Below, piece after piece: positions 26,082 to 55,473 of a stretch of DNA of 64,000 bases. Position 1 is the first letter of the stretch, and each line of letters begins with the position of its first letter. The stretch lies in IMG/VR virus record IMGVR_UViG_3300037189_028117, positions 18,977-82,976 of that record; one strand, 5' to 3'. Source of the stretch: a virus (lineage: Duplodnaviria; Heunggongvirae; Uroviricota; Caudoviricetes). The notes under the pieces were generated by a model. The model was not told the origin of the DNA. It was given only the letters and a program-made list of their open reading frames with translations, and made no database searches. The position numbers and the translations under genes are program-made.

Positions 26082-26465
26082 ATGAAAAAGACTCAATTAA
26101 ATTTTATTAAAATGGCTATAACAAAATTTGCCAACGAAGTTTACGGTAACACTTTATCTGATGGCGATACAGATTTAGATATCGCTGATGAAATAGTTTC
26201 AAGATTATCCAAATATTTTGATAAATCAAAAGTACCAGAATTATCAGATTCTGATTATCAAATATATTTACAGACGAGAACTTGTGATATGGAGGATTCC
26301 TATTTCTTAGGAATAGAAGAAAACAATAATTATTCTGAAAAAGAAAGAAAATTAAAAGAGAAAGAATTAAAAAGCTTAAATACATTTATAAATAAATTTT
26401 TCCCTAAAAAGCCTGAAAGGAAAATACTTTCCGCACCAAAAGCAAAGAAAGTTTTGAAAAAATGA
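26082..26465 (+). CDS. hypothetical protein (127 aa)
   Basis: ORF, ATGA to next. Confidence 0.4.
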   Translation: MKKTQLNFIKMAITKFANEVYGNTLSDGDTDLDIADEIVSRLSKYFDKSKVPELSDSDYQIYLQTRTCDMEDSYFLGIEENNNYSEKERKLKEKELKSLNTFINKFFPKKPERKILSAPKAKKVLKK

Positions 26466-26728
26466 AATTTTCAGATTTTGTTGAAGATGGCAAAGAACAT
26501 TTTATTTTATATAAATTTGATGGAATTGGATATGATTTTTTACACTCCTATTATAAATTAAGTAATATAATCATTAAGACCGGTTCTTACATGAATATTG
26601 AAGAGGCTTATATAGATTTGCCATATAATGATGGGGAATTGAAAGATTATAAAAAAATATTCTTTAAATCAAAGAAAGAACTAATTGACGAGTTTAATAA
26701 TTTAAAAATATTAAAAGAAATTATATGA
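26462..26728 (+). CDS. hypothetical protein ending 'LKILKEII'
   Basis: shared junction/C-tail, no repeats. Confidence 0.4.
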   Translation: MKFSDFVEDGKEHFILYKFDGIGYDFLHSYYKLSNIIIKTGSYMNIEEAYIDLPYNDGELKDYKKIFFKSKKELIDEFNNLKILKEII

Positions 26729-27258
26729 AAAAGCAAAAAGTTAAAAAAATTTTATCAAAAGAGCAAGAAGAGAATATATTAAATATTCTCTCAAATAATT
26801 TTTCAAATGGAGATCATTTTGATTTCTCTTTTAATTTTAAAAATTACAATTATTCAGAAGAGTTTATAGAAAAAGCTATTCCTTATTTAGACTCGAAAAC
26901 ACTAGGAAGTATTATTACTAATGATAATTGCAAGTATATATTTTTGTTATCTGAAAATTCTATTAAAAAAATTTTAAAATACAAATATGTTTGTTTACAG
27001 TTTTCATACTATGCAAATAGAATATTTAAAAAAAGACTCTTCTCTGAAGATTTTTTGCAAAGTTATATAAACAAATTTACTCGTAAGAATAGTTATTATT
27101 TTTCAAATAATATTTCTTTAATTTCTATATATCAAAATATGTCTGAAGATTTTATTATTAAAAATATAAAAATTTTAAATGTTGAATTCTTGATAAGAAA
27201 CAAAAATATAACAAAAGATGTAAAAAATAAAATTATTTCATTAAGAGAAATTATATGA
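26725..27258 (+). CDS. degenerate repeat-family-like protein (177 aa)
   Basis: 'NMSEDFIIKNIKILNVEFLIRNKNITKDVKNKIISLREII'. Confidence 0.5.
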   Translation: MKKQKVKKILSKEQEENILNILSNNFSNGDHFDFSFNFKNYNYSEEFIEKAIPYLDSKTLGSIITNDNCKYIFLLSENSIKKILKYKYVCLQFSYYANRIFKKRLFSEDFLQSYINKFTRKNSYYFSNNISLISIYQNMSEDFIIKNIKILNVEFLIRNKNITKDVKNKIISLREII

Positions 27259-27776
27259 AAAAACATAATTTGGATTTAAAATATAATAGATATTCAGAGC
27301 AAGAATTAAAAGATAAAATTCACTTATTTGATTTAAATGATTGGGATAATGTTTCTGAGCATCAAAATCTATCTAAAATTTTTATCAGAAAACATTCAGA
27401 CAAACTTTGTTGGGGTTGCATTTCTTACTTTCAAGAATTATCAGAAAAACTTATAGAAAAATATTCGGAAAAAGTTAATTGGCATTCGATTTCTTCTGAA
27501 CAAAAATTATCAGAAGAATTTATTGAAAAATACTCAGATAAAGTTGATTGGATTAATATTTCTTATTGTCAAAAATTATCTGAAAAATTTATAGATAAAT
27601 ACTCAAATAAACTTGATTGGTATTCTATTTCTGCTAGTCAAAAATTATCAGAAGAGTTTATAAAAAAATATATAAATAAAATTAATATTGGTTTTTTAAT
27701 GGAAAACCCAAACATTTCTGAAAAATTAAAAAAGAAAATAAAAAAAGAAATTAAATTATTAAAAGAAATCATATGA
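27255..27776 (+). CDS. 23-aa-repeat family protein (5 repeats)
   Basis: canonical caps and repeats. Confidence 0.75.
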   Translation: MKKHNLDLKYNRYSEQELKDKIHLFDLNDWDNVSEHQNLSKIFIRKHSDKLCWGCISYFQELSEKLIEKYSEKVNWHSISSEQKLSEEFIEKYSDKVDWINISYCQKLSEKFIDKYSNKLDWYSISASQKLSEEFIKKYINKINIGFLMENPNISEKLKKKIKKEIKLLKEII

Positions 27777-28156
27777 AAAAACATAATTTAGATTTATTAA
27801 GTAAAATATATTCCGAAGAAGAATTGGAAGAAAACATTATGTTATTTAAAAAACTTGATTGGCATACAATTTGTTATGCGCAGGTTTTGTCTGAAAATTT
27901 TATTGAAAAATACTCTGATAAAATTTATTGGGAATTGATTTCTGAATGTCAAAATTTATCCGAAGAATTTATTGAAAAACATTCAGATAAAGTTGACTGG
28001 GATTATATTGCTATAGAGCAAGTTTTATCAGAAAAATTTATAAGAAAACATATAGATAAAATTGATATTAATTATTTAATGGAAAACTATCATATAGATG
28101 AGAATGTAAAATCTAAAATTAAATTAGAAGTCGATTTATTAAAAGAAATTATATAA
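27773..28156 (+). CDS. 23-aa-repeat family protein (3 repeats)
   Basis: canonical caps, 'VDLLKEII'. Confidence 0.7.
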   Translation: MKKHNLDLLSKIYSEEELEENIMLFKKLDWHTICYAQVLSENFIEKYSDKIYWELISECQNLSEEFIEKHSDKVDWDYIAIEQVLSEKFIRKHIDKIDINYLMENYHIDENVKSKIKLEVDLLKEII

Positions 28157-28418: not shown

Positions 28419-29312
28419 ATGGCATCAGTAATAGATAGGGTTTTTAGATTTAATTTAGCTTCTCCTCCACCTTGGTTGAGAACAAATGTTCATTACGAAG
28501 TTGTTATGGGATCTACCGCTTATGGTGTATCTTCTGATAATTCTGATATGGACATTTATGGATTTTGTATTCCTCCTAAAGAATATATATTCCCTCATTT
28601 ATCCGGTTACATCAATGGTTTTGGTAAAAAACCTCCAAATTTTGAAGTTTGGACAGAACATCATATAAAAGACAAAGATAAAAACAAAGAATACGATTTT
28701 TCTATTTATGGAATTGTTAAATTTTTTCAATTGTGTATGGACAATAACCCAAACATGATTGATTCTCTTTTTGTTCCACAAAACTGCGTTCTTCATCAAA
28801 CCAGAGTCGCTACAATGATTAGAGATAATAGAAAAATATTTCTTCATAAGGGATGCTATCATAAATTTAAAGGTTACTCATTTAGTCAATTACATAAAGC
28901 TGAAATTAAAAATCCACAAGAAGGTTCAAAAAGATATGAAGATATAAAAAATCATGGTTATGATTCAAAATTCTTGTACCACGTTGTTAGACTTTTAGAT
29001 GAATGTGAGCAAATTCTTACATTAGGTGACCTTGATTTACAGAGGTCGAAAGAGTATCTTAAGGCCATCCGTAGAGGAGAAGTTTCCGAAGAAGATGTAA
29101 AATCTTATTTTAACGAAAAAGAAAAATATTTAAACAAATGTTACGAAGAATCAAAGCTTCCTTATTCTCCAGATGAGGATAAAATAAAAACTCTTCTTTT
29201 GAATTGCTTGGAGGACCATTATGGTTCTTTGGAAAAAGCTTATTTTGATCCTGGCAAAGCTGAAAAGGCTTTGATGGAAATAAAGCAAATAATTGAAAGA
29301 AATGTAAAATGA
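28419..29312 (+). CDS. Pol-beta-superfamily nucleotidyltransferase-fold protein
   Basis: 'GSTAYGVSSDNSDMDIYGF' = GS-x9-DxD NTase motif. Confidence 0.55.
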   Translation: MASVIDRVFRFNLASPPPWLRTNVHYEVVMGSTAYGVSSDNSDMDIYGFCIPPKEYIFPHLSGYINGFGKKPPNFEVWTEHHIKDKDKNKEYDFSIYGIVKFFQLCMDNNPNMIDSLFVPQNCVLHQTRVATMIRDNRKIFLHKGCYHKFKGYSFSQLHKAEIKNPQEGSKRYEDIKNHGYDSKFLYHVVRLLDECEQILTLGDLDLQRSKEYLKAIRRGEVSEEDVKSYFNEKEKYLNKCYEESKLPYSPDEDKIKTLLLNCLEDHYGSLEKAYFDPGKAEKALMEIKQIIERNVK

Positions 29313-29677
29313 ATTTAATGAACAAAAAATATTCTGAAAAAGAATTGGAAGTGAATATTGATTCATTTAATGATATTGATTGGATGAACGTTTGTGAATT
29401 TCAGAATTTATCTGAAGAATTTATGGAAAAATATTATAATAAGTTGAATTGGCTTTATGTTTCTAAATGTCAAAAATTATCTGAAAATTTTATAGAAAAA
29501 TATTCAGATGAATTATATTGGGATTTGATTTCTCAATATCAAAAATTATCAGAGTTTTTTATTAAAAAACATATAAATAAAATTAGTTTTTATGATCTTA
29601 TGTTAAATAAAAACATTTCAAAACATTTGAAAGAAGAAATAAAAGAAGAATTAGAGTTGTTGAAAGAAGTTATATGA
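29309..29677 (+). CDS. 23-aa-repeat family protein (3 repeats)
   Basis: 'KKYSEKELEVNIDSFNDIDW', 'LELLKEVI'. Confidence 0.7.
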   Translation: MNLMNKKYSEKELEVNIDSFNDIDWMNVCEFQNLSEEFMEKYYNKLNWLYVSKCQKLSENFIEKYSDELYWDLISQYQKLSEFFIKKHINKISFYDLMLNKNISKHLKEEIKEELELLKEVI

Positions 29678-29973
29678 AACATAATTTAGATTTAGTGTAT
29701 AAAAAATATACCGAAGAAGAATTAGAAAATAACATTCATTTATTTGAATTCAATGATTTTCGTAGAATTTATACATATCAAAAATTATCAGAAAAGTTTA
29801 TAGAAAAACATTCAACTAATGTTGATTGGGGATATATTTCTCATTATCAATATTTATCTGAAGAATTTATAAAAAAACATATAAATAAAATTAGTATTTA
29901 TTATTTAATGATGAACAAAAAAATCTCTAAGAACATCAAACAAGAAATAAAAACATTAAAGTATATAATATGA
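29674..29973 (+). CDS. 23-aa-repeat family protein (2 repeats)
   Basis: 'MKHNLDLVYKKYTEEELENNIHLF', 'IKTLKYII'. Confidence 0.7.
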   Translation: MKHNLDLVYKKYTEEELENNIHLFEFNDFRRIYTYQKLSEKFIEKHSTNVDWGYISHYQYLSEEFIKKHINKISIYYLMMNKKISKNIKQEIKTLKYII

Positions 29974-30269
29974 AAAAACATAATTTAGATTTATTTAAGA
30001 AATGTTCTGAAAAAGAATTAGAAAAAAACATTGATTTATTTAATCAAATTGAGTGGAATATTATTTCTTATTCTCAAAAATTATCAGAGTCATTTATAGA
30101 AAAATATTCACATAAACTTGATTGGGGATGGATTTCAATTTATCAAGAATTATCTGAAAAATTTATAATGAAACATCTTGATAAGATTAGTGTTTTTTGG
30201 TTAATGGAAAATAAAAAAATCTCTAATAATATTAAAAAAGAAATAAAAACATTAAAAGATATAATATAA
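29970..30269 (+). CDS. 23-aa-repeat family protein (2 repeats)
   Basis: 'MKKHNLDLFKKCSEKELEKNIDLF', 'IKTLKDII'. Confidence 0.7.
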   Translation: MKKHNLDLFKKCSEKELEKNIDLFNQIEWNIISYSQKLSESFIEKYSHKLDWGWISIYQELSEKFIMKHLDKISVFWLMENKKISNNIKKEIKTLKDII

Positions 30270-30373
30270 TGACAAAGCAAGAAAAGATATATAAACTATG
30301 TTTAAAGTTCATAAAAGAAAATAAAATTGGTTGCTCGGAAACTATTTTTCAAACCGACATGGTTTCTGAATAG
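30269..30373 (+). CDS. possible 34-aa micro-ORF (TAATG overlap)
   Basis: 'MTKQEKIYKLCLKFIKENKIGCSETIFQTDMVSE*'. Confidence 0.25.
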   Translation: MTKQEKIYKLCLKFIKENKIGCSETIFQTDMVSE

Positions 30374-30433
30374 GCATTACCTTTTATTGAAGAAATTTGT
30401 CAAATTGTTGGTTACGATAGGAGCGAAAGTTAA

Positions 30434-30997
30434 ATGGAAAGTTTTTTTCAATGGTATAATTTAATTTACTATGCAAGTTTGTTTGTTGGCATAATTCTTT
30501 CTTCATTGTCAGCTTTGGATGTTGACTTGGATATGGATGATGTTCCAAGCTCATTTTTCCAAGCGTTTGGAATTGGGAAAATACCAATAATGATAACAAT
30601 TGTCATCATTTGTTTGGTTTTTGGCTTTTTCGGAAATGTTTTTAATTATGTTTTTAGTATAAACTCTTTATCAACTTCATTTGATTATATTAAAGTTTTT
30701 TTATTATCTTTTATAACTTCAATAATTTTTCATTCTTTTACTGCTTATTTGTTTAATAATATTTTCAAAGACAAGCCAAATAAAGAAAATAAAATAATTG
30801 GTTCAAATGGAGTATTGAGAACGAAAGTTTCAAAAGAAAATAAAAAAGGATTGGCTAATTTTTACGTCAATGGAGATGTTTTTCAACATCATGTATATTT
30901 TGAAGATCTTGATGTGGATTTAATTCCATTGACAGATATAACCGCGGTTGGTTACAATGAAGAAACCAAAGAATATTTGGTAGAAAGAAAGGTATAA
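30434..30997 (+). CDS. NfeD-like membrane protein (flotillin partner)
   Basis: N-terminal TM helices, soluble C-terminal beta domain, SD 'aggag', immediately upstream of SPFH gene. Confidence 0.55.
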   Translation: MESFFQWYNLIYYASLFVGIILSSLSALDVDLDMDDVPSSFFQAFGIGKIPIMITIVIICLVFGFFGNVFNYVFSINSLSTSFDYIKVFLLSFITSIIFHSFTAYLFNNIFKDKPNKENKIIGSNGVLRTKVSKENKKGLANFYVNGDVFQHHVYFEDLDVDLIPLTDITAVGYNEETKEYLVERKV

Positions 30998-31090
30998 TGT
31001 TATTTTTAAATTATTTAGTTTTGGGTGTATTTTCATCCATATTGTTTGTGTATTTTGTTAATAAGTTTTTAAAGAAAGGTAAAATGTAAT

Positions 31091-32932
31091 ATGAATATTT
31101 TTTTAGTAGTTTTAAGTTTAATTATGTTATTTTCACAAGTTCTTCTTGGTCTTGTTGGGATAACTTTAAGTCCAGTATCTAATATGATAATTTCTGGATT
31201 AGCCATTTTAGTTTTAATGGCAGTAACTTCAATTTTGGTAGTTACTAAACTATACGTAAGAGCAAAGCCGAATGCTGCCTTTGTAAGAACCGGTATGGGT
31301 GGCCTTAAGGTTGTAAAAGATGGTGGTGCATTAGTAATTCCAATTCTTCATCAAATTGTTTGGGTTAACCTAGAAACAATTAGACTAGAAGTCAACCGCT
31401 CAGGTAAAGATGCACTTATAGTAAAGGACATGCGCGCAGACATACAGGCAGAATTCTTCGTAAGAGTTCAACCAGACGAATCCTCTATTCAATCCGCAGC
31501 AAGATCTCTTGGAGATAAGAAAGATGCCACAAATTCAATTGCAGCTCTTTTGATTGATAAGCTTGTCTCTGCCTTACGTACGGCAGCAGCAGTTAAAACA
31601 TTGGCTCAACTAAACTCAGAAAGAGAAGAATTCGTAAAAGAAGTTACAAATCAAATTAAAGAAGATTTGGCTCATAACGGGTTTACGTTAGAAACGGTTA
31701 CAATTTCGGCACTTGACCAAACTGATGTTATTCATTTTAAAGCAACAAATACTTTTGATGCTCAAGGCTTGGCAAATATTGCCCAAATTACAGAATCAAA
31801 TTTAACCAAAAAGAATGAAGCGGAGAATCTAAATAAGAAAGCTCGTAAGGAACAGGATGTAAAAACTGCTCTTTCTGTTTTTGATTTAGAGAAAACTCAA
31901 GCTGAAGCTGCGGCAAAACAAAAAACTGAAATTGCAATTGTTACAGCTGAACAAGAAAAGCAAGCAAAAGAAAAAGTAATTGAAGCTGAAAGATCTGTAG
32001 ATTTAGCTAACGTTGAAAGAATGAAAACAATTGAAATTGCAAAACGTGAACAAGAAAAGGCTGCAGAAATCGCAGCTAAAGAAAAAGAACGTTCGATTGT
32101 TGATGCTGAAAAGTTGGTTGAAGTCGCTAAACGTTTGCAACAAGAAGCAATTGCTCAAGCTGAAGCTAAGAAAGCATTAGAAGAAGCAAAACAAGCTCAA
32201 GCGGAAGCTTCTAGAGCTGAAGAAAGACAAAAAATTCTAACAGTAGAAGAAGTTGCAAAGGCAAATCGTGATAAGACCGTAAATGTTACAAAAGCAGAAG
32301 CGGAAGCTCAACAAAACCTTGTTACAGCACAAAAACAAGCAGACGCAGATGCTTATAAAATTACAGCTCAAGCTGAGGCAAGAAAAGCATCAGCCGATGC
32401 TGACGCAGAAGCAATTAAAAAGAAGGCAGAAGCAGAAGCCGAAGCCGTAAAAAGAAAAGCTGAAGCAGACGCTTTCGCAAAGACAAATATGGCACAAGCA
32501 GAACGTTCTCAGTTGTTAGCTCTTGCAGAAGGTACAAAAGCTCAACAAATGGTTCCAGTGGAAGTTGCAGAAAAGCAAGTTGCCGTTGATAAATCAAGAG
32601 TTGAAGATGTTCTTAAACCAGAACTTGAGGCTCGTGAAAAGAGCGGTAAGGTTGCTCAAGAATTTGAGATTGAACAAATGAAAATAAAATATAATGCAGA
32701 AATAAGCGTTGCTTATGCTCAAGCATTAGGTTCAATGGCTGGTAAGTTTGAAGCAACACTATATGGAACTCCCGAGCAAGCTGCTGATATGTTTAGCAAG
32801 TTTGGTAAAGGGTTTGGTTTAGCTCAAACTTTAGAGGGTATGATTGATGGTTCTGGAGAAGGAACCAGAAATCTAATTCAAAAAGCTGGTGAGGCTGTTG
32901 AATCATTGCTACCTAAAAAAGAAGAAAAATAA
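31091..32932 (+). CDS. SPFH/band-7 flotillin-like protein (YqiK/FloA type)
   Basis: N-terminal TM, SPFH domain, long Ala/Glu-rich 'AEAEA' coiled coil. Confidence 0.8.
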   Translation: MNIFLVVLSLIMLFSQVLLGLVGITLSPVSNMIISGLAILVLMAVTSILVVTKLYVRAKPNAAFVRTGMGGLKVVKDGGALVIPILHQIVWVNLETIRLEVNRSGKDALIVKDMRADIQAEFFVRVQPDESSIQSAARSLGDKKDATNSIAALLIDKLVSALRTAAAVKTLAQLNSEREEFVKEVTNQIKEDLAHNGFTLETVTISALDQTDVIHFKATNTFDAQGLANIAQITESNLTKKNEAENLNKKARKEQDVKTALSVFDLEKTQAEAAAKQKTEIAIVTAEQEKQAKEKVIEAERSVDLANVERMKTIEIAKREQEKAAEIAAKEKERSIVDAEKLVEVAKRLQQEAIAQAEAKKALEEAKQAQAEASRAEERQKILTVEEVAKANRDKTVNVTKAEAEAQQNLVTAQKQADADAYKITAQAEARKASADADAEAIKKKAEAEAEAVKRKAEADAFAKTNMAQAERSQLLALAEGTKAQQMVPVEVAEKQVAVDKSRVEDVLKPELEAREKSGKVAQEFEIEQMKIKYNAEISVAYAQALGSMAGKFEATLYGTPEQAADMFSKFGKGFGLAQTLEGMIDGSGEGTRNLIQKAGEAVESLLPKKEEK

Positions 32933-32960
32933 GATTGACTAAACGGTCATCCTCATGGTA

Positions 32961-32998
32961 AAAGGAGGAGAGGTTAATTCCTCTCCTCCTTTTTATTT
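32961..32998 (+). terminator. strong intrinsic terminator after flotillin gene
   Basis: 'aaaggaggagagg-ttaatt-cctctcctccttt' + 'ttttatttg'. Confidence 0.8.
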
Positions 32999-33001
32999 GA
33001 T

Positions 33002-33382
33002 ATGAAACATAATTTAGATTTAATAAATAATAATTCTTCCGAAGAAGAATTAGAAAAATATATACACTTATTTGAATCGCTTGATTGGATATATATTTCT
33101 GCGTATCAAAAATTATCTGAAGAATTTATAGAAAATCATTCAGATGATGTTCGTTGGGATAAAATTTCTAAATACCAAATTTTATCAGAAAATTTTATTG
33201 AAAAATATTCAGATAAGCTTAGGTGGGATTATATTTCTTATTATCAAAAATTATCCGAAGAATTTATAAAAAAACATATCAATAAAATTGATGTTGAAGA
33301 GTTAATAGAAAACAATAAAATTTCTAAAAAGTTAAAAGAAAAAATTGAAAAAGAAATTAATTTATTGAAAGAAATTATATGA
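33002..33382 (+). CDS. 23-aa-repeat family protein (3 repeats)
   Basis: canonical caps. Confidence 0.7.
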   Translation: MKHNLDLINNNSSEEELEKYIHLFESLDWIYISAYQKLSEEFIENHSDDVRWDKISKYQILSENFIEKYSDKLRWDYISYYQKLSEEFIKKHINKIDVEELIENNKISKKLKEKIEKEINLLKEII

Positions 33383-33815
33383 AACATAATTTAAGTCTAA
33401 GTGATAAAAAATATTCGGAAAAAATTTTAGAAAAAAATATTAAATTATTTACGGAATGGGATTGGTTTTTCATTTCAAGATATCAAAATTTATCAGAACA
33501 ATTTACAGAAAAAAATGTAGATAAACTTCATTGGGGTTGCATTTCTTGCTTTAAAAAATTATCTGAATGTTTTTTATAAAATATTCAGATAAATTAAATT
33601 GGAACTTGATTTCTAGATATCAAAAGTTATCAGAAAATTTTATAAAAAAACATTCAGATAAAGTTAATTGGTATGAAATTTCTTATTATCAAAAATTATC
33701 CGGTAAATTTATAAAAAGAAATGTTAATAAAATTAATTTTACTTTGCTTATGATGAATAAAAACATTTCAGATGGAATAAAAAATGAAATACTGACTTTG
33801 AAAGAAATTATATGA
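33379..33815 (+). pseudogene. 23-aa-repeat family member split by frameshift in a T6 run (~33573); called as two ORFs 33379-33579 and 33567-33815
   Basis: '...CFKKLSECFL*' then other frame 'FIKYSDKLNWNLISRYQKLSE...'; one extra T would restore 'LSECFFIKYSDKLNW'. Confidence 0.55.
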
Positions 33816-34057
33816 AAAAACATAATTTAAATTTGGCCAGGAATAAATATTCAGAAAAAGAATTAGAAGATAATATTAACTTTTTTGATCTAATAGATTG
33901 GGGAGATATTGCTTATCATCAAGAATTATCCGAAGAATTTATAAAAAAACATATTAATAAAATTAGTATTTTTTTATTAATGAGAAACAAGAAAATTTCT
34001 AAAAAATTAAAAGAAAAAATTGAAAAAGAAATTAATTTATTGAAAGAAATTATATAA
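33812..34057 (+). CDS. 23-aa-repeat family protein (1 repeat)
   Basis: caps with single repeat. Confidence 0.65.
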   Translation: MKKHNLNLARNKYSEKELEDNINFFDLIDWGDIAYHQELSEEFIKKHINKISIFLLMRNKKISKKLKEKIEKEINLLKEII

Positions 34058-34350
34058 TGCTAAATGAATATATTTTAATTTACATACCAAATAAAAACAA
34101 TGAATTTTTTGATTTTTTTATTTCTTATGATAAAAATTATCAAAATAATGATGATCTTGGAAAATATTTCAAAAAATTTGAACCAAATACAATAGATATT
34201 GAATTGTTTTTAACAGAAATTGATAATGATTATTTATTTAAATTAAATAATAAAGTTAAAGAAGATGGTTTTTATTGTTATTTGAAATATAAGAAAAAAA
34301 CAATAAAACAAGATATAAAAAATTTGTTAACGATTAAGGATATTATATAA
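34057..34350 (+). CDS. hypothetical protein ending 'LLTIKDII'
   Basis: shared C-tail only. Confidence 0.4.
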   Translation: MLNEYILIYIPNKNNEFFDFFISYDKNYQNNDDLGKYFKKFEPNTIDIELFLTEIDNDYLFKLNNKVKEDGFYCYLKYKKKTIKQDIKNLLTIKDII

Positions 34351-34361
34351 AGGAAAATCGA

Positions 34362-35411
34362 ATGATAAAAAACACAATAGGAATACCAAAAGAAATAAAA
34401 AAATTTGAATTTAGAGTTGGAGCAACTCCAACTTGTGTAAAAGCTTACAAGAAAATTTGCGAATATGTTTTCGTTGAAGCTGGAGCTGGTATAGGTTCCG
34501 GCTTTTCTGACGATGAATATGCTGAAGCTGGAGCAACAATTGTATCCACAGCAAAAGAAGCTTGGAATGCTGAAATGGTTATAAAAGTAAAAGAACCTCA
34601 ACCTTCTGAATTTCAATATTTTGAAAAAGGTAAATTTCTTTATACTTACCTTCATTTAGCAGCTTTCCCAGATTTAACAGAAGCTTTGGTTCGCTCTGAG
34701 ATGAATTGCGTTGGATATGAAACAATCTCAGAAAACAATTCTTTAGTTTGTCTAGAACCAATGTCCATCATTGCTGGCAAGCTGGCTGCTCAGAAGGGGT
34801 CCGAGTACCTCCTAGCGCCACACGGTAGGGGCATTTTAATGGGGGGTCTTCCTGGAATTCCTCCAGCCAATGTAACCATTGTTGGTGGTGGTTCAGTCGG
34901 AACGGCCGCTGCAAGAGTATCTATTGGCATGGGAGCAAACGTTACCATACTTGATATTTCTCAAAAAAGATTATATGAATTAGAAAATATATTTGGAAAT
35001 TCAGTTAATTTATTATTATCAAATGATAAAAATATAAAATCAACATTAGTAAATACTGATCTTTTAATTGGTGCAGTTCTTATTCCTGGTAAAAAAGCTC
35101 CAAAATTATTTAATTCAATTTTACTTAATTTAATGAAAAGAAATTCTGTATTTGTTGATGTTGCCATAGATCAAGGTGGTTGTTCAGATACATCTGTGCC
35201 TACTACACATGATAATCCTATATATTATAAAGATAATATTTTGCATTATTGTGTAGCAAATATGCCTTCTGTATCAGCTAGAACATCAACTTTAGCCTTA
35301 ACTAATTCAACTTTAAAATATGGTTTAGATTTATTTTTAAATAAAGATAGAAAATGCGAAATAGATAAAGGTTGGCAAATTAATAAAAACGGAATGATAA
35401 TATCAATGTGA
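34362..35411 (+). CDS. ald: L-alanine dehydrogenase
   Basis: near-colinear with bacterial Ald: 'IGIPKEIKKFEFRV', 'AGAGIGSGF', 'AEMVIKVKEP', 'YTYLHLAA', 'VTIVGGGSVGTAAAR', 'VDVAIDQGG', 'HYCVANMP'; SD 'aaaggaaaatcg'. Confidence 0.85.
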   Translation: MIKNTIGIPKEIKKFEFRVGATPTCVKAYKKICEYVFVEAGAGIGSGFSDDEYAEAGATIVSTAKEAWNAEMVIKVKEPQPSEFQYFEKGKFLYTYLHLAAFPDLTEALVRSEMNCVGYETISENNSLVCLEPMSIIAGKLAAQKGSEYLLAPHGRGILMGGLPGIPPANVTIVGGGSVGTAAARVSIGMGANVTILDISQKRLYELENIFGNSVNLLLSNDKNIKSTLVNTDLLIGAVLIPGKKAPKLFNSILLNLMKRNSVFVDVAIDQGGCSDTSVPTTHDNPIYYKDNILHYCVANMPSVSARTSTLALTNSTLKYGLDLFLNKDRKCEIDKGWQINKNGMIISM

Positions 35412-35442
35412 AATTTTCACATCACTTGATATATATAAAAGT

Positions 35443-36273
35443 ATGTCTAAATGGCGACCAGCATCAGAATGTACATATGTAATTGGTGATATTCATGGTT
35501 ATAATGAACCTTTGAATTTAATATTAAAAAGAATATTGCCTTTAAGAAAAAATGATAAAATAATATTCTTAGGAGATTATGTTGATAGGGGGCCAGATTC
35601 CGCTGGAGTAATTGATACAATAATTTCTTTAAAAGAAGAATATGGAGATCAAATTATAGCTTTAATGGGTAATCATGAGTGGTTGTTTATGGCTTCCATG
35701 GGTAAGTTAAATAATAAAGTATACTATGATGACCCTTTACAAATTTGGTTTTCAAATGGAGCATATAATACTTTGTGGTCTTATGTAAGATCAAAGGGTG
35801 TATCAGAAAATGATATGCGACAAATGCCATTAGATAGATTTAATAATATAATTCCACAAAAACATTTTGATTTTTTAACTAATTTACCATATTTTTATGA
35901 AACAAATGATTATATATTTGTTCATGCAGGTTGTGATCCATATGAAAATATAAGTCTTCAAAATGAAAATGATTTAATTTGGGACAGATCCTTATTTAAT
36001 AAGGTGCTTTCATTAATAGCAAATGACAAAGAGGTTGATTTTCCAAAAACAATTGTAACTGGACATAATAGTCGAGGACCAGTTATTACAAGTAAGTTCA
36101 TGATGATAGATTGTAGCTCTTCAAAGAGAATAATGTGTCTAGAATTGAATTCTATGGAAGCATTTTTTGCTGAACCAGGAAATAAAAGACTAGTAAAATG
36201 TGATGTGCAGGAATCAAATAAAAAAGATTTAGGCATAAATAATATAAAACAAGCTGTATTTAAAAGATGTTAA
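35443..36273 (+). CDS. PPP-family Ser/Thr phosphatase / ApaH-like metallophosphoesterase
   Basis: 'VIGDIHGY', 'LGDYVDRGPDS', 'GNHE'. Confidence 0.75.
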   Translation: MSKWRPASECTYVIGDIHGYNEPLNLILKRILPLRKNDKIIFLGDYVDRGPDSAGVIDTIISLKEEYGDQIIALMGNHEWLFMASMGKLNNKVYYDDPLQIWFSNGAYNTLWSYVRSKGVSENDMRQMPLDRFNNIIPQKHFDFLTNLPYFYETNDYIFVHAGCDPYENISLQNENDLIWDRSLFNKVLSLIANDKEVDFPKTIVTGHNSRGPVITSKFMMIDCSSSKRIMCLELNSMEAFFAEPGNKRLVKCDVQESNKKDLGINNIKQAVFKRC

Positions 36274-38189
36274 AAAAAGAAAAAACTCTTATCATTGTAG
36301 AATCTCCAGGTAAAGTTAAAAAAATCCAAGAGTATCTTGGAAATAACTATCTTGTTACAGCATCTTATGGACATATAAGAGATTTGGATCATAGCGGACC
36401 CATGAATATGGGTGTAAATTTGCAAACATTTACTCCAACATATAAAATCATAGAAAATAAACGTGATAAAGTTTCTGCGATAATACATTTAGCTTCTTCT
36501 GTAAAAGAAATTTATTTAGCAACCGACCCTGATAGAGAAGGTGAAGCTATTGCTTGGCATTTGTATTTTTGTTTAGAGTCGGTTGGTTGCCCAATAAAAA
36601 GAGTAAAGTTTAACGAAATTACAAAAAAAGCTATACAGAAAGCTGTAAAGAATGCTCACGACTTAGATTATAAATTATTCGAATCACAACAATCAAGAAG
36701 AGTAATTGATAGAGTTGTTGGCTTTATGTCATCAGATTACTTAAGAAAGTATTATAATAAGAATTATTCTGCTGGAAGAGTGCAATCTGTTGCTGCTAAA
36801 TTAATTGTCGATCGAGAATCAGAAATTTCAAATTTTATTCCGGAAGAATATTGGAATGTTTCTGTTATTTTGCAAAAAAATAAAAAACAATTTGAGGCAA
36901 AATTAAATCAAAAACCAAAGAATAAAAAAGATGCAGTTGCAATCCAAACAAAATTAAATGGGGCAACTTTATCTGTTAAAAATATAAAATCCGAAAAGAA
37001 TTTTAGACAACCAAATCCACCATTTATTACTTCTTCATTACAACAATATTGCTCTCAAAAACTTAATGTAAAAGTTGGAGAAATAATGAAGCAAGCTCAA
37101 TCTTTATATGAAGCAGGTTTAATTACTTATATGAGAACTGATTCTACAAGATGTTCTGATGAATCAATAATATCGGCTAGAGAAGAAATAAAAAATTTAG
37201 GATTTAATGTACCAGTTAAATCAAATAATTTTTCAAAAGGAAAAGCTTCCCAAGACGCTCACGAAGCAATTCGTCCAACAAACCCTAATGTTAAACCAAA
37301 TGATGCATTTATAAGTGATGATATAAAAGACTTATATAATTTAATTTGGGAAAGATTCATTGCTTCTCAAATGGAACCGGCAGAGATAGATTCTACAATT
37401 ATAAATTTTAACTATAATGGAATAGAATTGAAGTCCATAGGTAAAACCATAAAAAACAAAGGTTGGTTAGGGTTTATAAAAGAAAATGAAGAATTAGAAG
37501 AACTTCCAAATATATCTGAAAAAGATTCTTTTGTTGTTTTAGATGTTAAATTGGAACAGAAATTTACACAACCACCAAGTAGATATACAGAAGCTTCTCT
37601 TGTAAAAGAACTAGAAAAACGTGGCATTGGAAGACCTTCCACATATGCATCAATTACAGAAACAGTTAAAGATAGAGGTTATGTTGGATTGGATGGAAAA
37701 AGCTATAAGCCAACCAGTGTAGGAATTGATATTATAAATAATTTATATAATAAATTTTCTTTTATGAAATATGATTATACTTCTAAGATAGAAGAAAAAC
37801 TTGATGATATTTCCGAAGGAAAATATAATTATAATGATATGATGGAAGAATTCTTTAAAGAATTTAGAGTAGAATATCGAGAAGCTACAAAAGATCCAGA
37901 CACTCATACTGAATATGAGTGTTACTTATGCGAATCACCTATGGTTTTGAAAAAAGGTAAATTTGGAGATTTCTTAGCTTGTAGCGATATGCCTTTTTGC
38001 AAAGCAACAATTGGTGTAAATATAGTTCATGGAATACCTATTCCAAATAATATAGTTGATAAAAACCCTTATATGGATTATAAATGTAAAAAATGCAATG
38101 ATTTTATGTATTTAGTTTATTTTGGAAAAATTAAAAGAGTCCATTGTATGGATGAAAGTTGTGGCGGATCATATATAATAGAAAGGTAA
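36267..38189 (+). CDS. topA: DNA topoisomerase I (type IA)
   Basis: TOPRIM 'LIIVESPGKVKKI', 'DPDREGEAI', catalytic Tyr context 'GLITYMRTDS', C-terminal Cys4 zinc ribbons. Confidence 0.9.
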   Translation: MLKKEKTLIIVESPGKVKKIQEYLGNNYLVTASYGHIRDLDHSGPMNMGVNLQTFTPTYKIIENKRDKVSAIIHLASSVKEIYLATDPDREGEAIAWHLYFCLESVGCPIKRVKFNEITKKAIQKAVKNAHDLDYKLFESQQSRRVIDRVVGFMSSDYLRKYYNKNYSAGRVQSVAAKLIVDRESEISNFIPEEYWNVSVILQKNKKQFEAKLNQKPKNKKDAVAIQTKLNGATLSVKNIKSEKNFRQPNPPFITSSLQQYCSQKLNVKVGEIMKQAQSLYEAGLITYMRTDSTRCSDESIISAREEIKNLGFNVPVKSNNFSKGKASQDAHEAIRPTNPNVKPNDAFISDDIKDLYNLIWERFIASQMEPAEIDSTIINFNYNGIELKSIGKTIKNKGWLGFIKENEELEELPNISEKDSFVVLDVKLEQKFTQPPSRYTEASLVKELEKRGIGRPSTYASITETVKDRGYVGLDGKSYKPTSVGIDIINNLYNKFSFMKYDYTSKIEEKLDDISEGKYNYNDMMEEFFKEFRVEYREATKDPDTHTEYECYLCESPMVLKKGKFGDFLACSDMPFCKATIGVNIVHGIPIPNNIVDKNPYMDYKCKKCNDFMYLVYFGKIKRVHCMDESCGGSYIIER

Positions 38190-38199
38190 AATATAAATA

Positions 38200-39501
38200 A
38201 TGACAACATTAACAGAACTAGACATTGAGAAACAAGAAGATTTATCTAAAAAAAGACTTAAGTCATTTACCCCGAAATATTCAAACTTAAATGATAGACC
38301 TGAATCAAATTTAATAGATTTAATGAATTGGGTTCAAAATACATTTAAAACTGAATTGAAAGATTCAAAACATTTAAGTAATGTCATTCACAATAAAATT
38401 GTAATTGATGGACCATTCGTTCAATTTTGCGAAGAAAATGAAATAAAAATAGAATGTTTATATAAAGATTCTTTTGCTTCTTGGAAGTCCGAAAATAACT
38501 TTGAAAGTTTCACATTTCAAGGTGTTTTTAAAATTTCAAAAGGAAATCTTGAATTTATACAATCTTCCTTATTTCATAAGGGCAATCAAAACGAAGATGA
38601 AGTTTCATATTTTATAGTTGTAAGCGATGATAAATTTCATCAATATACAAAATTAAGAAATGATTATGATAGTTGGTTAATTGCAAGAGACCGTGAAAAT
38701 CTTGAAATCCAAGTCATTGGAGGAGAGCCAATTCCATATGAAAGGAACCTTTCTTGGGATGATCTTTTCATGGAAGAATCTTTGAAAAAAGAAATAAAAG
38801 GTACGGTTGAAGGTTTTCTTAATGCAGAATCTCTTTATAAAGAACGTGGTATTCCATGGAAAAGAGGTGTTTTGTTTTTCGGGGAGCCAGGAAATGGAAA
38901 AACATCTGCAATAAGAACGATTATATCAGAATATAATTTTAAGCCAGTTACAGTTCAAAATAGCGCATCCACTAATGATGATACCATTACTGAAGCTTTT
39001 GTTTATGCAGAACAACAGGGGCCTTCATTATTATATTTTGAAGATCTAGATAGTTTGTTGCAACAAAATATTAGCTTAAGTCATTTTTTGAATTTAATGG
39101 ACGGCGTTGCATCTAAACAAGGAATTTTCATAATTGCTACAGCTAATGAACCAGGAATATTAAAGCAATCTATAACAGACAGACCTTCTAGATTTGATCG
39201 TAAATGGGAATTTAAATTACCAGATGAAAAGAGTTCTTTAGATTATTTAAAGAAGTGGTTTGGAACACAAATTAAAGAAGAATCTTTGAAAAAAGTTGCC
39301 GAAAAAACTGTAAAATATAAATTTTCTTTTTCATATTTGAAAGAATTATATATAACTGCGGCATATTCTGCAATTTCAAATAATAGAAAAACACCAAATA
39401 ATAAAGATTTATCAATTGCCTTGAAGCAATTGGTAGGAGATAAAACAAGAGCGCAAGATGGGTTTTATACAAATACAAGTGAGGAAATAGGAATAAGATG
39501 A
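38200..39501 (+). CDS. AAA family ATPase
   Basis: Walker A 'GEPGNGKTS', Walker B 'LLYFEDLD', sensor 'ATANEP'. Confidence 0.75.
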   Translation: MTTLTELDIEKQEDLSKKRLKSFTPKYSNLNDRPESNLIDLMNWVQNTFKTELKDSKHLSNVIHNKIVIDGPFVQFCEENEIKIECLYKDSFASWKSENNFESFTFQGVFKISKGNLEFIQSSLFHKGNQNEDEVSYFIVVSDDKFHQYTKLRNDYDSWLIARDRENLEIQVIGGEPIPYERNLSWDDLFMEESLKKEIKGTVEGFLNAESLYKERGIPWKRGVLFFGEPGNGKTSAIRTIISEYNFKPVTVQNSASTNDDTITEAFVYAEQQGPSLLYFEDLDSLLQQNISLSHFLNLMDGVASKQGIFIIATANEPGILKQSITDRPSRFDRKWEFKLPDEKSSLDYLKKWFGTQIKEESLKKVAEKTVKYKFSFSYLKELYITAAYSAISNNRKTPNNKDLSIALKQLVGDKTRAQDGFYTNTSEEIGIR

Positions 39502-39755
39502 GTAAAGCAACCAAAATACCAGCAACATTAGATCAAATGAGAAAGTTTTCGGCAATTGAAGCAAAACCAGCTTCTGATTCAAGAGAAGATTTTGAATATG
39601 CTTTGAGAATTTTTAAATCAATAGTTCAAAAGGAAAGAATTTTATCTCTTTATAAAGAAAAACAAAGATATGAAAAACCTTCCGTTAAAAAAAGAAGAAA
39701 GAAAATCGAAGCTTTGCAAAGAGCTAAAGAAGAAAAGGTAAAAGATGGAGAGTGA
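39498..39755 (+). CDS. rpsU: ribosomal protein bS21 homolog (with ~30-aa N-terminal extension)
   Basis: 'EDFEYALRIFKSIVQKERILSLYKEKQRYEKPSVKKRRKK' vs E. coli S21 '[40 protein letters not shown]'. Confidence 0.7.
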   Translation: MSKATKIPATLDQMRKFSAIEAKPASDSREDFEYALRIFKSIVQKERILSLYKEKQRYEKPSVKKRRKKIEALQRAKEEKVKDGE

Positions 39756-40137
39756 TAAAAAGGATTTGGTGGATCAAAAAAGGTCAAACCAAATCCCTTT
39801 TTCTGGATATAATACGGAAGTTTTATTTTCAGAAAGAGAGATTGACCCTAATGAAGAATCTTTTGAGGTAGATCAAATAACTGAACCACCTCCTCCAATA
39901 CCAGATTTTGTTGAGGAATTAACGGAAGAATCTAGCGAAGAAGATGATTTTTTATCTTTAAAATCTTTAAGTGATGGAATGTACTGTTTATTTTACGAAG
40001 ATCAACTGGTATTAAATGGAACAAAAGATAAGATAAAAAATTACTTATCAGAAGTAATATTAAATGATGTTCCCGTTGAATCATTTTCCGTTTTGAAAAA
40101 GGTAACTTTGAAAGTTGGTATTTCATTGGATGAATAA
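39745..40137 (+). CDS. hypothetical acidic protein
   Basis: ORF. Confidence 0.4.
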   Translation: MESDKKDLVDQKRSNQIPFSGYNTEVLFSEREIDPNEESFEVDQITEPPPPIPDFVEELTEESSEEDDFLSLKSLSDGMYCLFYEDQLVLNGTKDKIKNYLSEVILNDVPVESFSVLKKVTLKVGISLDE

Positions 40138-40793
40138 TGTCAAAAAAAATATCTGAAATAATAATTGAGTTGAATGATAAAACTGATAAAATTTTACAAA
40201 ATCTTGTAAATCAAGATTTATTGTTAAAAACAATCGTTAAAAGGTTGAATTCAATTTCATTATTATTAAACAATGACAAAATATCAAATAATATTTCAAA
40301 CGAAATATCTCAATTAACAGAAGAAATAAAATCAATACCATCAATTTTAACTACATCCACACACACGTACGTGGATGAAAAATCAAATGAAATTGAAGTA
40401 AAAGAAACAATACAAACCGACCCTAACCTTATTAGGGTTCCAGGAATGAAAGAAGGTATATTTCTTCATAAAGATACTGGAATTGTTCATAAAAAAACAA
40501 TTAGGGGTCAGCAATATGCTGTTCCCGTTCAACAAAAACTTTTGTATTCAGATGGAACTCCAATAACGATGGCAAATGTAGAATTATTGTCAGAAGAAAC
40601 TGGATCTTTAGTTTCTGTAAAAAAATTAAAAACAAATGCGACTGGAAAATGGACAACAAATATTCAACCAGGATCTTATGTTGTCAAAGTTTTTAAAAAC
40701 AAAAATCATAATAGAGAAGAAGTTAGGCATTTAGCGGATATAGTTGTTCCCGAAGATAAGTCAGGAACCCAATTACAGGATTTAATAATATGA
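40137..40793 (+). CDS. hypothetical coiled-coil protein
   Basis: ORF. Confidence 0.4.
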   Translation: MSKKISEIIIELNDKTDKILQNLVNQDLLLKTIVKRLNSISLLLNNDKISNNISNEISQLTEEIKSIPSILTTSTHTYVDEKSNEIEVKETIQTDPNLIRVPGMKEGIFLHKDTGIVHKKTIRGQQYAVPVQQKLLYSDGTPITMANVELLSEETGSLVSVKKLKTNATGKWTTNIQPGSYVVKVFKNKNHNREEVRHLADIVVPEDKSGTQLQDLII

Positions 40794-41185
40794 AAATATA
40801 TTTAGCTTCATATAAGGAAACTAATAATCATGGCTTTGGTAGGAAAATTTCTGTTGCTGAATCTAAACCTCCAGAATTAGATATAAAATTTATATATAAA
40901 GATTTTGTACCATCAAATGAAATAATAAATAATTATTATTTAAACAAAAATAAAAACCAAGATTTGGCAGCAAAAGCTTTTGAATTAGAGTTTTCTAAAC
41001 AATTAGATGAATTTAAAGGAAAATTATTAAAATTTTGCGAAAATAATAACAAAGAACCGAAAGAAGTTCTTCCTTTTAAAGATGGAGATACTTTATTGTC
41101 TTGGGAAAGGTTTGGTTATTCTAATTATAGAAAACCTATATCTAACCTTTTAGAATCTTTGGGTTATGAGGTGATTTTAAAATGA
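40790..41185 (+). CDS. hypothetical protein
   Basis: ORF. Confidence 0.4.
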   Translation: MKIYLASYKETNNHGFGRKISVAESKPPELDIKFIYKDFVPSNEIINNYYLNKNKNQDLAAKAFELEFSKQLDEFKGKLLKFCENNNKEPKEVLPFKDGDTLLSWERFGYSNYRKPISNLLESLGYEVILK

Positions 41186-41616
41186 GAAAAAACCCATGGA
41201 TAAAAAGAAAAGCAAAAATATTATATGGTGATTTGAATAAAAAAATAGAATCTGATGAAGAATATAGTAAACACTCTGATATTTTAAATAAAAAATCATT
41301 GGAGGCTGATGAGCTTGTTAATGATATTAATTTAATTAATGAAAAATTTATAAAAATTTCAGAAAAATTAAAAACAAAATCACCAGATCTTTTAATAGAA
41401 GCTTTGCCAATAGAAAATACAAAAGATTTTTATGATATAGAATATCATGGTAAATTAACAAAACCAACATATTCTGATTTTTCAGAATTAATAAAAACAG
41501 CCAAGGTTTTAGATAAAATATCGGTTCAAGTTGAAAAAACAGAGGAAGAAGAAAGAATCCTTAAAATTGAGCAATTAATATTAAAAATAAACAAAATATT
41601 AGAAATTAATAATTAA
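41182..41616 (+). CDS. hypothetical protein
   Basis: ORF. Confidence 0.4.
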   Translation: MRKNPWIKRKAKILYGDLNKKIESDEEYSKHSDILNKKSLEADELVNDINLINEKFIKISEKLKTKSPDLLIEALPIENTKDFYDIEYHGKLTKPTYSDFSELIKTAKVLDKISVQVEKTEEEERILKIEQLILKINKILEINN

Positions 41617-41629
41617 TTAGCATAAGTAT

Positions 41630-42067
41630 GTGATTAAAGAAGCTGAAAAACACTTTATAGATGCTTTGTTTATATTAGCTTCTGCTGGACCAAATGTTAT
41701 AATTGAGCCAGTAGAACCTATGGTACAAAAAGCTGTAGACATTTTAAAAAGAATGAATTCAAATTATTTTGATGGCATTAGTAAAATTAAAGCTAATTAT
41801 GGATCAAATGCATTTGGTTTTGTTGAATCTGGTAAAGATAAAGATCCAACAATACTGAATATTAATTTAAATAAATTAAAAGGTTTAACTGACCCTATTG
41901 AGATTTTATATCAAACAATAGTTACAATTGCTCATGAAGCAGCTCACGCCAAATCTTTTGATGAAAAATCTGGATTTGTTGGCGGAGAGTCGGTCGCAGA
42001 AGCTGAAGAAAGAAAAGTTGAACAATGGTTAAAAGCAAATATAAAACTTTTGCAGGATAATGTTTAA
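41630..42067 (+). CDS. small HEXXH (zincin-like) protein
   Basis: 'TIAHEAAHAKSF'. Confidence 0.4.
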   Translation: MIKEAEKHFIDALFILASAGPNVIIEPVEPMVQKAVDILKRMNSNYFDGISKIKANYGSNAFGFVESGKDKDPTILNINLNKLKGLTDPIEILYQTIVTIAHEAAHAKSFDEKSGFVGGESVAEAEERKVEQWLKANIKLLQDNV

Positions 42068-44870: not shown

Positions 44871-45413
44871 TTGCAAAACTTTAAGAATAAAAGACCAAAT
44901 AAAATATATATACCTTATAATGATAGAATTAAAGCAACTCACGTTAGATGCATAGATTCTTCAAATGAAAATATAGGTGTCTTACCTATAATGGAAGCTA
45001 TAGATAAAGCTTTCTCTGAAGATTTAGATTTAGTTCAAATTTCTGAAGGAAAGGATGGTATACCAGTTTGTAAAATAACTGATTTTGGAAAGTTTAAATT
45101 TGAATTTCAAAAGAAACAAAAAGAGACTGCTAAGAAACAAAGAGAAGCAATTATCAAAGTAAAAGAAATAAAATTAAGACCTTCTACAGAAGATAATGAT
45201 TTAAAAATAAAAGCAGAAAAAGCTAATGAATTTATAAATGATGGTGATAAAGTAAAAATATTTATAGTATTTAGAGGAAGAGAAATGGCTCATAAAGAGT
45301 TGGGTTACGAAACTTTAAATAAATTTTTAAGTTTTATACCGGAGAAAAATGTTTATAATCAATCTTTTCAAGGGAAAATTCTATCAACAATGATAGAGAA
45401 GAAAGCAAAATGA
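44871..45413 (+). CDS. infC: translation initiation factor IF-3 (TTG start)
   Basis: 'IPVCKITDFGKFKFEFQKK..KKQ...IKVKEIKLRPSTEDNDLKIK...DGDKVKIFIVFRGREMAH' colinear with bacterial IF-3. Confidence 0.85.
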   Translation: MQNFKNKRPNKIYIPYNDRIKATHVRCIDSSNENIGVLPIMEAIDKAFSEDLDLVQISEGKDGIPVCKITDFGKFKFEFQKKQKETAKKQREAIIKVKEIKLRPSTEDNDLKIKAEKANEFINDGDKVKIFIVFRGREMAHKELGYETLNKFLSFIPEKNVYNQSFQGKILSTMIEKKAK

Positions 45414-45922
45414 TAATTACAGATATAGATAAGCTTTCGGTTTTATCAGAAGATGTAAGTCCGGAAGAAGCTCTTACTATAATTGACTTATTAGAAAAAG
45501 AATTAGAAAATTCTGCAAAGCAAGGTAGTCCAGGCATTGGATTAGCTGCGCCACAAATAGGTATAAATAAAAAGGTAGCTATAGTTAGAGTTGGTGACAA
45601 TAAAATAAATCTTGTTAATTCTAAAATAGTAGAAAAAATAATACCTTTCGAATTTGATGGTGAAGGATGTCTTTCATTCCCTGGAATGATTAAAAAAACT
45701 AAAAGGTACAAAGAAATAGTTGTAGAGAACGAAATTTATCCACACAAGTTTATTGCAACTGATTTGTTGGCAGTTGTAATTCAACACGAAATTGGTCATT
45801 GGAATAACGAACTTTTGCCTTATATAGAAGATCTTAATCCAAAAGTAAAACAGAAATTACGACCGAATGATCTATGTAATTGTGGTAGTGGTAAAAAATA
45901 TAAAAAATGTTGTGGAGCATAA
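45410..45922 (+). CDS. def: peptide deformylase with C-terminal SEC-C zinc motif
   Basis: PDF motifs 'GIGLAAPQIG', 'EGCLSFPG', 'QHEIGH'; C-terminus 'CNCGSGKKYKKCCG' = SecA-type SEC-C. Confidence 0.8.
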   Translation: MIITDIDKLSVLSEDVSPEEALTIIDLLEKELENSAKQGSPGIGLAAPQIGINKKVAIVRVGDNKINLVNSKIVEKIIPFEFDGEGCLSFPGMIKKTKRYKEIVVENEIYPHKFIATDLLAVVIQHEIGHWNNELLPYIEDLNPKVKQKLRPNDLCNCGSGKKYKKCCGA

Positions 45923-55472: not shown

Positions 55473-55473
55473 A

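Follow-up and report, generated by a model that had tools for sequence, protein, structure and literature searches.

Background

Alanine dehydrogenase (Ald) catalyses the reaction L-alanine + NAD+ (nicotinamide adenine dinucleotide) + H2O <-> pyruvate + NH4+ + NADH. Its homologues on viral genomes are under-annotated: the phage protein family phrog_25893 is labelled "unknown function" in PHROGs, and the cultured T4-like cyanophage Synechococcus phage S-N03 (MT162466.1) encodes a 376-aa homologue (QIN96688.1, positions 3989-5119 of our locus L200) that passes the alaDH equivalog cutoff with 428.5 bits, is annotated as "hypothetical protein" and is not mentioned in the S-N03 genome paper. In full-text literature searches, we found no paper in which a virus-encoded alanine dehydrogenase is discussed. 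Here, we analyse an Ald homologue encoded at positions 34362-35411, on the plus strand, of a 64,000-nt stretch of a Caudoviricetes genome (IMG/VR record IMGVR_UViG_3300037189_028117, positions 18,977 to 82,976), referred to below as the window. The reading that we favour, with a probability of roughly 0.7, is that the gene encodes an L-alanine dehydrogenase dependent on NAD(H), and that it is a metabolic gene of host origin which a very AT-rich huge phage carries as an accessory.

Identity of the Encoded Protein

The coding sequence at 34362..35411 (plus strand) starts with ATG, encodes 349 aa, and is backed by the open reading frame (ORF) call, by Pfam, TIGR00518 and PDB matches, and by an AlphaFold (AF2) model. 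A protein identical to it is present in a public collection (P0001) under the JGI name "alanine dehydrogenase", and the identical gene was also found in an independent assembly (L001), the largest recorded contig with exactly this Ald being 171,650 bp long. The first-pass annotation, made from the sequence alone, had described a real gene with its own Shine-Dalgarno signal and an NAD-binding motif, and the three elements were found in place. The motif VTIVGGGSVGTAAAR corresponds to residues 171-185 (nt 34872-34916), with the GxGxxG signature at G175-G180. The Shine-Dalgarno core AGGA was read directly at 34351..34354 (plus strand), 7 nt 5' of the ATG and immediately after the stop codon (34348-34350) of the preceding 97-aa ORF. 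Cores of the type GGAG, GAGG or AGGA at -20 to -4 precede 26% of the 98 gene starts of the window, versus 7.5% of random positions; many leaders are A-rich, and Ald belongs to the minority with a well-spaced AGGA.

The protein shows the two-domain Pfam architecture of alanine dehydrogenases, consisting of the substrate-binding domain AlaDh_PNT_N (residues 7-138, 34380..34775, plus strand, 1.2e-38), followed by the NAD-binding domain AlaDh_PNT_C (residues 142-335, 34785..35366, plus strand, 3.2e-64), as expected in the search with hidden Markov models (HMM) that had been proposed as a check. It also scores 417.2 bits (E 5.5e-125) on TIGR00518, the NCBIfam alaDH equivalog, above its cutoff of 391.85, whereas two models of the pyridine nucleotide transhydrogenase subunit PntA gave 137.7 and 115.7 bits, their cutoffs being 383 and 444. 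A placement with PntA or with saccharopine-type dehydrogenases had been named beforehand as the outcome that would speak against Ald; the equivalog score above the cutoff, together with PntA scores far below theirs, decides this question in favour of Ald, which is also the best match by fold. Moreover, the traits looked for as indicative of PntA were not found, as the scores stay below the cutoffs, the 349-aa protein has no C-terminal membrane domain, and there is no neighbouring PntB gene.

Among PDB entries, the ten best sequence matches are all alanine dehydrogenases (from 2eez, 6e-104, down to 2e-57, with the top ones between 6e-104 and 1e-83), and transhydrogenases first appear at 8e-30. 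In an alignment of 74 sequences, the phage protein keeps all 59 of the 59 invariant columns, including R18 (34413-34415), K77 (34590-34592) and H98 (34653-34655) within AlaDh_PNT_N, and D270 (35169-35171) and the glycines G175, G177 and G180 of the GxGxxG motif within AlaDh_PNT_C. Residues R18, K77, H98 and D270 correspond to R15, K74, H95 and D269/270 of the solved enzymes, whose catalytic roles we take from the structures of the Phormidium lapideum and Mycobacterium tuberculosis alanine dehydrogenases. Y96, M134 and L131 also belong to the invariant substrate-binding set of Ald, and the acidic residue that specifies NAD, D198 ("TILD", at the end of the second Rossmann strand of AlaDh_PNT_C), is kept in a column that is more than 90% conserved.

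The AlphaFold model built from this alignment has a mean predicted local distance difference test (pLDDT) score of 91.7, with residues 1-331 modelled at high confidence onto the alanine dehydrogenase fold. Its top fold matches are the alanine dehydrogenases 8hye, 1pjb and 2voe/2vhx, with template modelling (TM) scores of 0.88-0.91 and a root-mean-square deviation (rmsd) of 1.1-1.5 A over about 325 columns, with transhydrogenase domain I ranking below them (TM about 0.8, rmsd about 3 A). In addition, phrog_25893 matches the protein at 4.3e-93, aligning residues 6-329 with profile positions 3-328 of 371. Thus, by HMM, sequence and predicted fold, the 349-aa protein is a bacterial-type Ald.

Origin of the Gene and Its Viral Setting

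A search among 5.8 billion clustered proteins returned a single near relative, P0002 (355 aa, 60% identity), the rest belonging to the bacterial type of 369-376 aa, with identities that do not exceed 59%. P0002 is encoded in a 46.8-kb phage contig (L002), whose shared genes show 66-70% nucleotide identity to the window in the same gene order, and it occupies the same slot as in the window, between the RlaP gene and the phosphatase/Topo IA block. No Ald was found in this slot of two more distant members of the clade, L207 (a 239.7-kb contig) and L208 (130.6 kb); the 366-aa and 313-aa proteins located there were considered as diverged Alds and rejected, as they are not Alds. The presence of P0002 in the same slot, and the slots of L207 and L208 devoid of Ald, point to an accessory gene that was captured once and then retained. 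Furthermore, outside a short patch described below, G or C occupies the third position in only 10% of the Ald codons (genome mean, 14.6%), from which it follows that the gene is fully recoded, that its capture is old, and that it has been kept. As judged from these sequence comparisons, the data indicate one old capture of a bacterial-type Ald into a variable slot, in the common ancestor of the window phage and L002.

In a crude neighbour-joining tree of 230 sequences, P0002 and the window Ald pair up as sisters on a long branch, to which no bacterial sequence in particular is sister, so the donor lineage that phylogeny was expected to reveal could not be named. The named near matches, at 55-58% identity, come from Ruminococcus, Lachnospiraceae, Oscillospiraceae and assorted Bacillales, and among the matches listed from GTDB species genomes identities range from 46 to 54% across many phyla (46-56% when metagenomes are included). 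The donor is of bacterial type, slightly closest to Bacillota, and nothing more specific can be named. A set of 376-aa proteins at 56% identity (P0004-P0015) was examined as a possible phage cluster and discarded, since they lie in an ordinary bacterial context.

That the gene is virus-encoded, as first proposed, is shown by a gene order conserved with IMG/VR viral contigs of 266, 409, 435 and 459 kb, and by a phage-like gene content and architecture. The shared order comprises FtsK-like, a 471-aa protein, histidine phosphatase, RlaP, phosphatase, Topo IA, AAA and S21, plus IF3 where the locus extends so far, and the NinI-like phosphatase beside Ald has hundreds of homologues on large contigs. 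The sizes of the contigs with this ordered block place the window in a clade of huge phages. Ald therefore lies within a syntenic block common to IMG/VR uncultivated viral genomes, with viral genes on either side, its closest non-phage homologues are bacterial (55-59% identity), and its presence varies among related viruses, all of which are features of an auxiliary metabolic gene. A megablast of positions 30000-42000 against cultured phages gave no match, and an IMG/VR scan with a single protein found no close relative.

The gene had been presented as rarely reported in viruses, which is true of the literature and not of the databases, where many viral Alds are already deposited. A two-pattern scan of IMG/VR detected at least 35 Ald loci, falling into about 17 separate lineages in the tree, among them a ten-member virus-only clade of about 33% GC and a three-member clade of 350-aa proteins; about 10 contigs, also at about 33% GC, carry copies related to the S-N03 Ald. 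As none of these lineages is sister to the window Ald, they represent independent captures. Viral Ald is thus rare per contig but recurrent, and the window Ald joins an existing, neglected set. So many independent captures (about 17 viral lineages) suggest that the gene brings a recurrent benefit, apparently unexamined so far; taken on its own, the window Ald is simply a further metabolic gene of host origin in a large phage.

A very divergent Ald was also observed at another locus of a distant clade member (L023, 9169-10296; IMGVR_UViG_3300028029_000007, 266 kb, the same contig as L214). Its TIGR00518 score of 340 bits falls short of the cutoff, and it contains insertions and an unrelated C-terminus and adjoins a NUDIX homologue. 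Its presence suggests that Ald was captured more than once within the clade.

Proposed Role and Alternative Explanations

The phage-borne Ald homologue is probably active. During infection, it would probably link free alanine with pyruvate, ammonium and the ratio of NADH to NAD+. Either alanine would supply carbon and reducing power for phage replication, or NAD+ would be regenerated through reductive amination of pyruvate under oxygen or electron-acceptor limitation of the host. If active, it would extend the host pathways open to adjustment by huge phages to the balance of alanine, pyruvate, ammonium and NADH, and would offer a naturally C-terminally trimmed alanine dehydrogenase for structure-function work. 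A role in host sporulation or germination had also been considered; no observation in support of it, or of a spore-forming host, was found. As for the host, the 26% of starts with Shine-Dalgarno cores, the A-rich leaders and the phage S21 are, as a weak inference, not typical of phages of low-GC Gram-positive bacteria. The IF3 homologues were tried as host indicators and proved uninformative, being mostly phage-like proteins, with the named bacterial ones about 45-51% identical and scattered among Proteobacteria.

Several observations weigh against the favoured reading, and most of them would also fit a gene copy in decay or put to a new use. Such a copy would be impaired in catalysis, for example through failure to assemble into the native hexamer, and would either be drifting to loss or act in another role by binding NAD(H) or pyruvate; we regard this explanation as rather unlikely. 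Homology to canonical Ald stops at about residue 325 (position 324 of the 370 in the TIGR00518 model), and the final 24 residues, LNKDRKCEIDKGWQINKNGMIISM, stand in for about 45 canonical ones (helix, beta-hairpin and terminal helix). The phage protein consequently lacks the complete C-terminal segment that returns to the substrate-binding domain (model positions about 325-370), and its divergent short tail (residues 326-349, 35337..35408, plus strand) does not align with the canonical C-terminus and is modelled at low pLDDT, with residues 332-349 below 50 and predicted to be disordered. Since the next gene starts 31 nt after Ald, no frameshifted C-terminal remnant is hidden downstream. The initial description of a full-length, motif-complete enzyme therefore holds for the catalytic core and its motifs and fails at the C-terminus. 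Among 135 positions at least 90% conserved in 72 bacterial-type sequences, 27 are changed in the window Ald, including P129V, R140K, A187S, T217L, A325F and G328K, versus 17 by the same measure in P0002. Its branch is also longer than that of P0002, its content of the residues with AT-rich codons (FYMINK) is enriched to 33% versus 24%, and the gene is absent from the more distant relatives. To these points it must be added that a scan of about 50 window ORFs revealed no partner gene acting in alanine or pyruvate metabolism, and that the tree was built from Kimura-corrected p-distances and carries no support values. Against a decaying copy, the frame is intact, and all 59 invariant residues, with the catalytic four and the NAD motif among them, have been kept despite strong AT pressure; the curated equivalog cutoff is still passed, and residues 1-331 are confidently modelled on the alanine dehydrogenase fold. 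In addition, the PDB chains 9vae and 9wns (345-358 aa), both named alanine dehydrogenase, end their homology at nearly the same point, with the match finishing at query residue 322, so a short C-terminus is not without precedent among chains of that name. Loss of the last strands and helix of the substrate-binding domain may alter the oligomeric state or the kinetics while leaving the catalytic residues untouched.

An enzyme of the alanine dehydrogenase/transhydrogenase superfamily acting on another substrate or in another role, either as a different amino acid dehydrogenase or as an NAD(H)-binding subunit resembling transhydrogenase domain I, would account for the membership of PntA and other dehydrogenases in the superfamily, for the close fold matches 8hye and 8hyh, deposited only as "amino acid dehydrogenase", and for the unusual divergence of residues about 134-163. 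We consider it very unlikely, because the PntA models reach 116-138 bits against cutoffs of 383-444, the membrane part and the PntB gene are missing, and R18, K77, H98, D270, Y96, M134 and L131 make up the invariant Ald set. Still harder to sustain is a non-viral origin, with the window as a bacterial or plasmid fragment or with Ald as a chimeric assembly insert. Neither the 64-kb window nor about 15 kb of flanking sequence (about 10 kb downstream and about 5 kb upstream) contains a capsid, portal or terminase gene, and many genes are of bacterial type (DnaE, IF3, trigger factor). But clade members with the same gene order are IMG/VR viral contigs of up to 459 kb, most ORFs have no Pfam family, about 30% of all ORFs fall in one small paralogous family, and Ald itself shares the extreme codon usage of the phage, is identical in an independent assembly and stands at the same place in a diverged relative. 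On balance, we retain the reading of an NAD(H)-dependent L-alanine dehydrogenase.

Gene Neighbourhood and Genome Content

The location among replication genes that had been assigned to Ald is accurate only for its downstream side. Directly downstream, on the plus strand, lies the gene for the NinI-like Ser/Thr phosphatase (Metallophos, 35443..36273), the marker that defines the phage clade, followed by Topo IA (36267-38189), an AAA ATPase (38200-39501) and ribosomal protein S21 (39498-39755), the last three also on the plus strand and in a block conserved and syntenic across the clade; SbcCD and DnaE come later. Upstream, there are instead a YqiJ/NfeD-like membrane protein (30434-30997) and, after it, a flotillin-like protein of the SPFH/Band-7 type (613 aa, 31091-32932) that has a long coiled region rich in KAEAEA; the GC content of the stretch with this pair (30434-32993), about 36%, is above that of its surroundings. 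Then come four small paralogous ORFs of the "MKHNL...LKEII" family (33002-33382, 33379-33579, 33567-33815 and 33812-34057, plus strand) and the 97-aa ORF adjacent to Ald (34057-34350, plus strand), none of the five with a Pfam match.

After the SPFH gene, a strong hairpin resembling an intrinsic terminator was found at 32960..32993 (plus strand), with a 14-bp stem followed by a T run, which is the likely upstream limit of the Ald transcription unit. No terminator-like site was detected between this hairpin and Ald, directly after Ald, or between Ald and the phosphatase, Topo IA, AAA and S21 genes, and promoter-like matches occur at chance level only. From the absence of terminators between Ald and its flanking genes, Ald would be co-transcribed with replication-phase genes, probably in a replication-type unit with Topo IA, the AAA ATPase and S21. 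Such a unit, beginning after the terminator at 32960-32993, would probably be early or middle.

The GC content ranges from 22 to 39% in 2-kb windows, mostly about 26%, with a positive GC skew throughout, and about 100 ORFs are tightly packed, often overlapping and nearly all on one strand. No tRNA genes were found in the window. Replication and repair are represented by a DnaE-type polymerase, SbcC/SbcD, a Cas4-like nuclease, Topo IA, AAA ATPases and an FtsK-like ATPase, and RNA-related functions by a T4-type RNA ligase, RlaP and Thg1; the NinI-like phosphatase, a NADAR protein and ClpP (19328-19948) were also identified, with most other ORFs having no Pfam family. The flanks encode RecA, RuvC, DnaJ, primase, a sigma factor, ligase and a second ClpP homologue, located about 1.1 kb upstream of the window (L004).

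Other gene sets were observed along the window. A translation and folding set typical of huge phages includes S21 (39498-39755), IF3 (44871-45413), peptide deformylase with SEC-C (45410-45922) and trigger factor (55453-56670), and DnaJ is also present in the phage (L003, 6974-7942). The IF3 family has phage-like homologues at 45-88% identity on contigs of up to 130 kb. A MoxR-like AAA ATPase (3997-5310) and a DUF2201 metallopeptidase/VWA-like protein (5385-6836) form a pair; the segment 3997-6836 is the most GC-rich part of the window (36-39%), so it may be a more recent acquisition. A set with the appearance of RNA repair and anti-defence, consisting of two Thg1-like proteins, a T4 RNA ligase 1-like protein, a NADAR-domain protein and an RlaP nucleotidyltransferase, is located at 10-819, 1493-2332, 12223-13398, 15487-16155 and 28419-29312.

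Finally, 31 of 108 ORFs match a C-terminal L(K/R)(E/D)II-type pattern. Most of them start with MKKHNLDL..YSEKELE.NI.LF and contain W..IS.YQKLSE.FI repeats with no Pfam family, examples being found at 2337-3303, 7306-8356, 26462-28156, 29309-30269, 33002-34350 and 61266-63465. These small paralogues usually overlap the following ATG (..ATTATATGA), and the ending that they share may in part be due to conservation at the DNA level, as a signal for the gene junction or for translational coupling.

Patches of G/C-Ending Codons

Codons 134-161 of Ald (34761-34844, plus strand) differ sharply from the rest of the gene, as G or C stands in third position in 17 of 26 informative codons, versus 10% elsewhere (binomial P 5e-9 for that window of codons), and the patch uses codons that are rare in the genome (CTG, CTC, GCG, GGG, GGC, CAG, CAC, AGG). 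It covers the inter-domain helix just before the Rossmann strand, where the protein sequence is also unusually diverged. Seven such patches were found inside genes, at 5080-5160, 7021-7113, 9030-9203, 10041-10130, 15287-15397, 22348-22494 and 34734-34868, the last being that of Ald; they are 80-170 nt long, and 50-68% of their codons have G or C at the third position, as compared with 14.6% on average in the genome. The presence of the identical sequence in an independent assembly indicates that the Ald patch is not a one-off assembly artefact.

The patches are not conserved in the relative L002, whose Ald homologue has none. An exact 24-mer from the Ald patch had 0 matches in the metagenome and viral collections searched, and blastn of the seven patches against 288 loci revealed no donor. 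The z-scores of RNA folding were unremarkable (-0.74 for the Ald patch), with only the patch at 5075-5165 reaching -2.58. Conversion of the Ald patch from a bacterial host gene was considered and appears unlikely, as features of the phage lineage are kept at the amino acid level. A bolder proposal, which we hold to be improbable, joins two parts. In the first, the shortened Ald would be a phage-adapted enzyme that shifts the NAD+/NADH pool of the infected cell, either by NAD+ regeneration in an anaerobic host or by parking the pool as NADH, away from NAD+-cleaving defence enzymes. In the second, separate part, the patches would reflect a genome-wide process undescribed for phages, for which there are two candidates: programmed pauses at rare codons, in a phage that encodes S21, IF3, trigger factor and DnaJ itself, and short-tract gene conversion from unsampled relatives of higher GC.

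Comparison with Known Systems

The closest system, P0002, shares with the window Ald the sequence LAAQ, a one-residue deletion before the GRG turn, NMPS instead of NMPG and a shortened C-terminus. In contrast to the window Ald, it reaches 453.6 bits on TIGR00518, keeps its C-terminus to model position 359 of 370, shows fewer deviations and is devoid of the patch of G/C-ending codons.

Bacterial Ald (EC 1.4.1.1), as represented by the enzymes of Thermus (2eez), Phormidium (1pjb) and M. tuberculosis (2voe/2vhx), has the same domains, catalytic residues, NAD motif and predicted fold as the phage protein, which is 44-52% identical to these solved enzymes and 55-59% identical to the closest metagenomic and Bacillota-type sequences (Ruminococcus, Lachnospiraceae). 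The differences lie in the length of 349 aa rather than about 370, with the canonical C-terminal helix, hairpin and helix absent or replaced, in the residue deleted ahead of the GRG turn, and in the change of G303 to S in the NMPG motif, the same S being present in P0002. Domain I of PntA belongs to the same superfamily and fold (TM about 0.8, 22-30% identity) but is joined to a membrane domain and a PntB partner, both without counterpart at the phage locus. Finally, the other viral Alds (phrog_25893, S-N03 and those in IMG/VR) are likewise homologues encoded on viral genomes, and S-N03 and several from IMG/VR pass TIGR00518; they differ from the window Ald in showing only 36-48% identity to it and in that most of them keep the full C-terminus.

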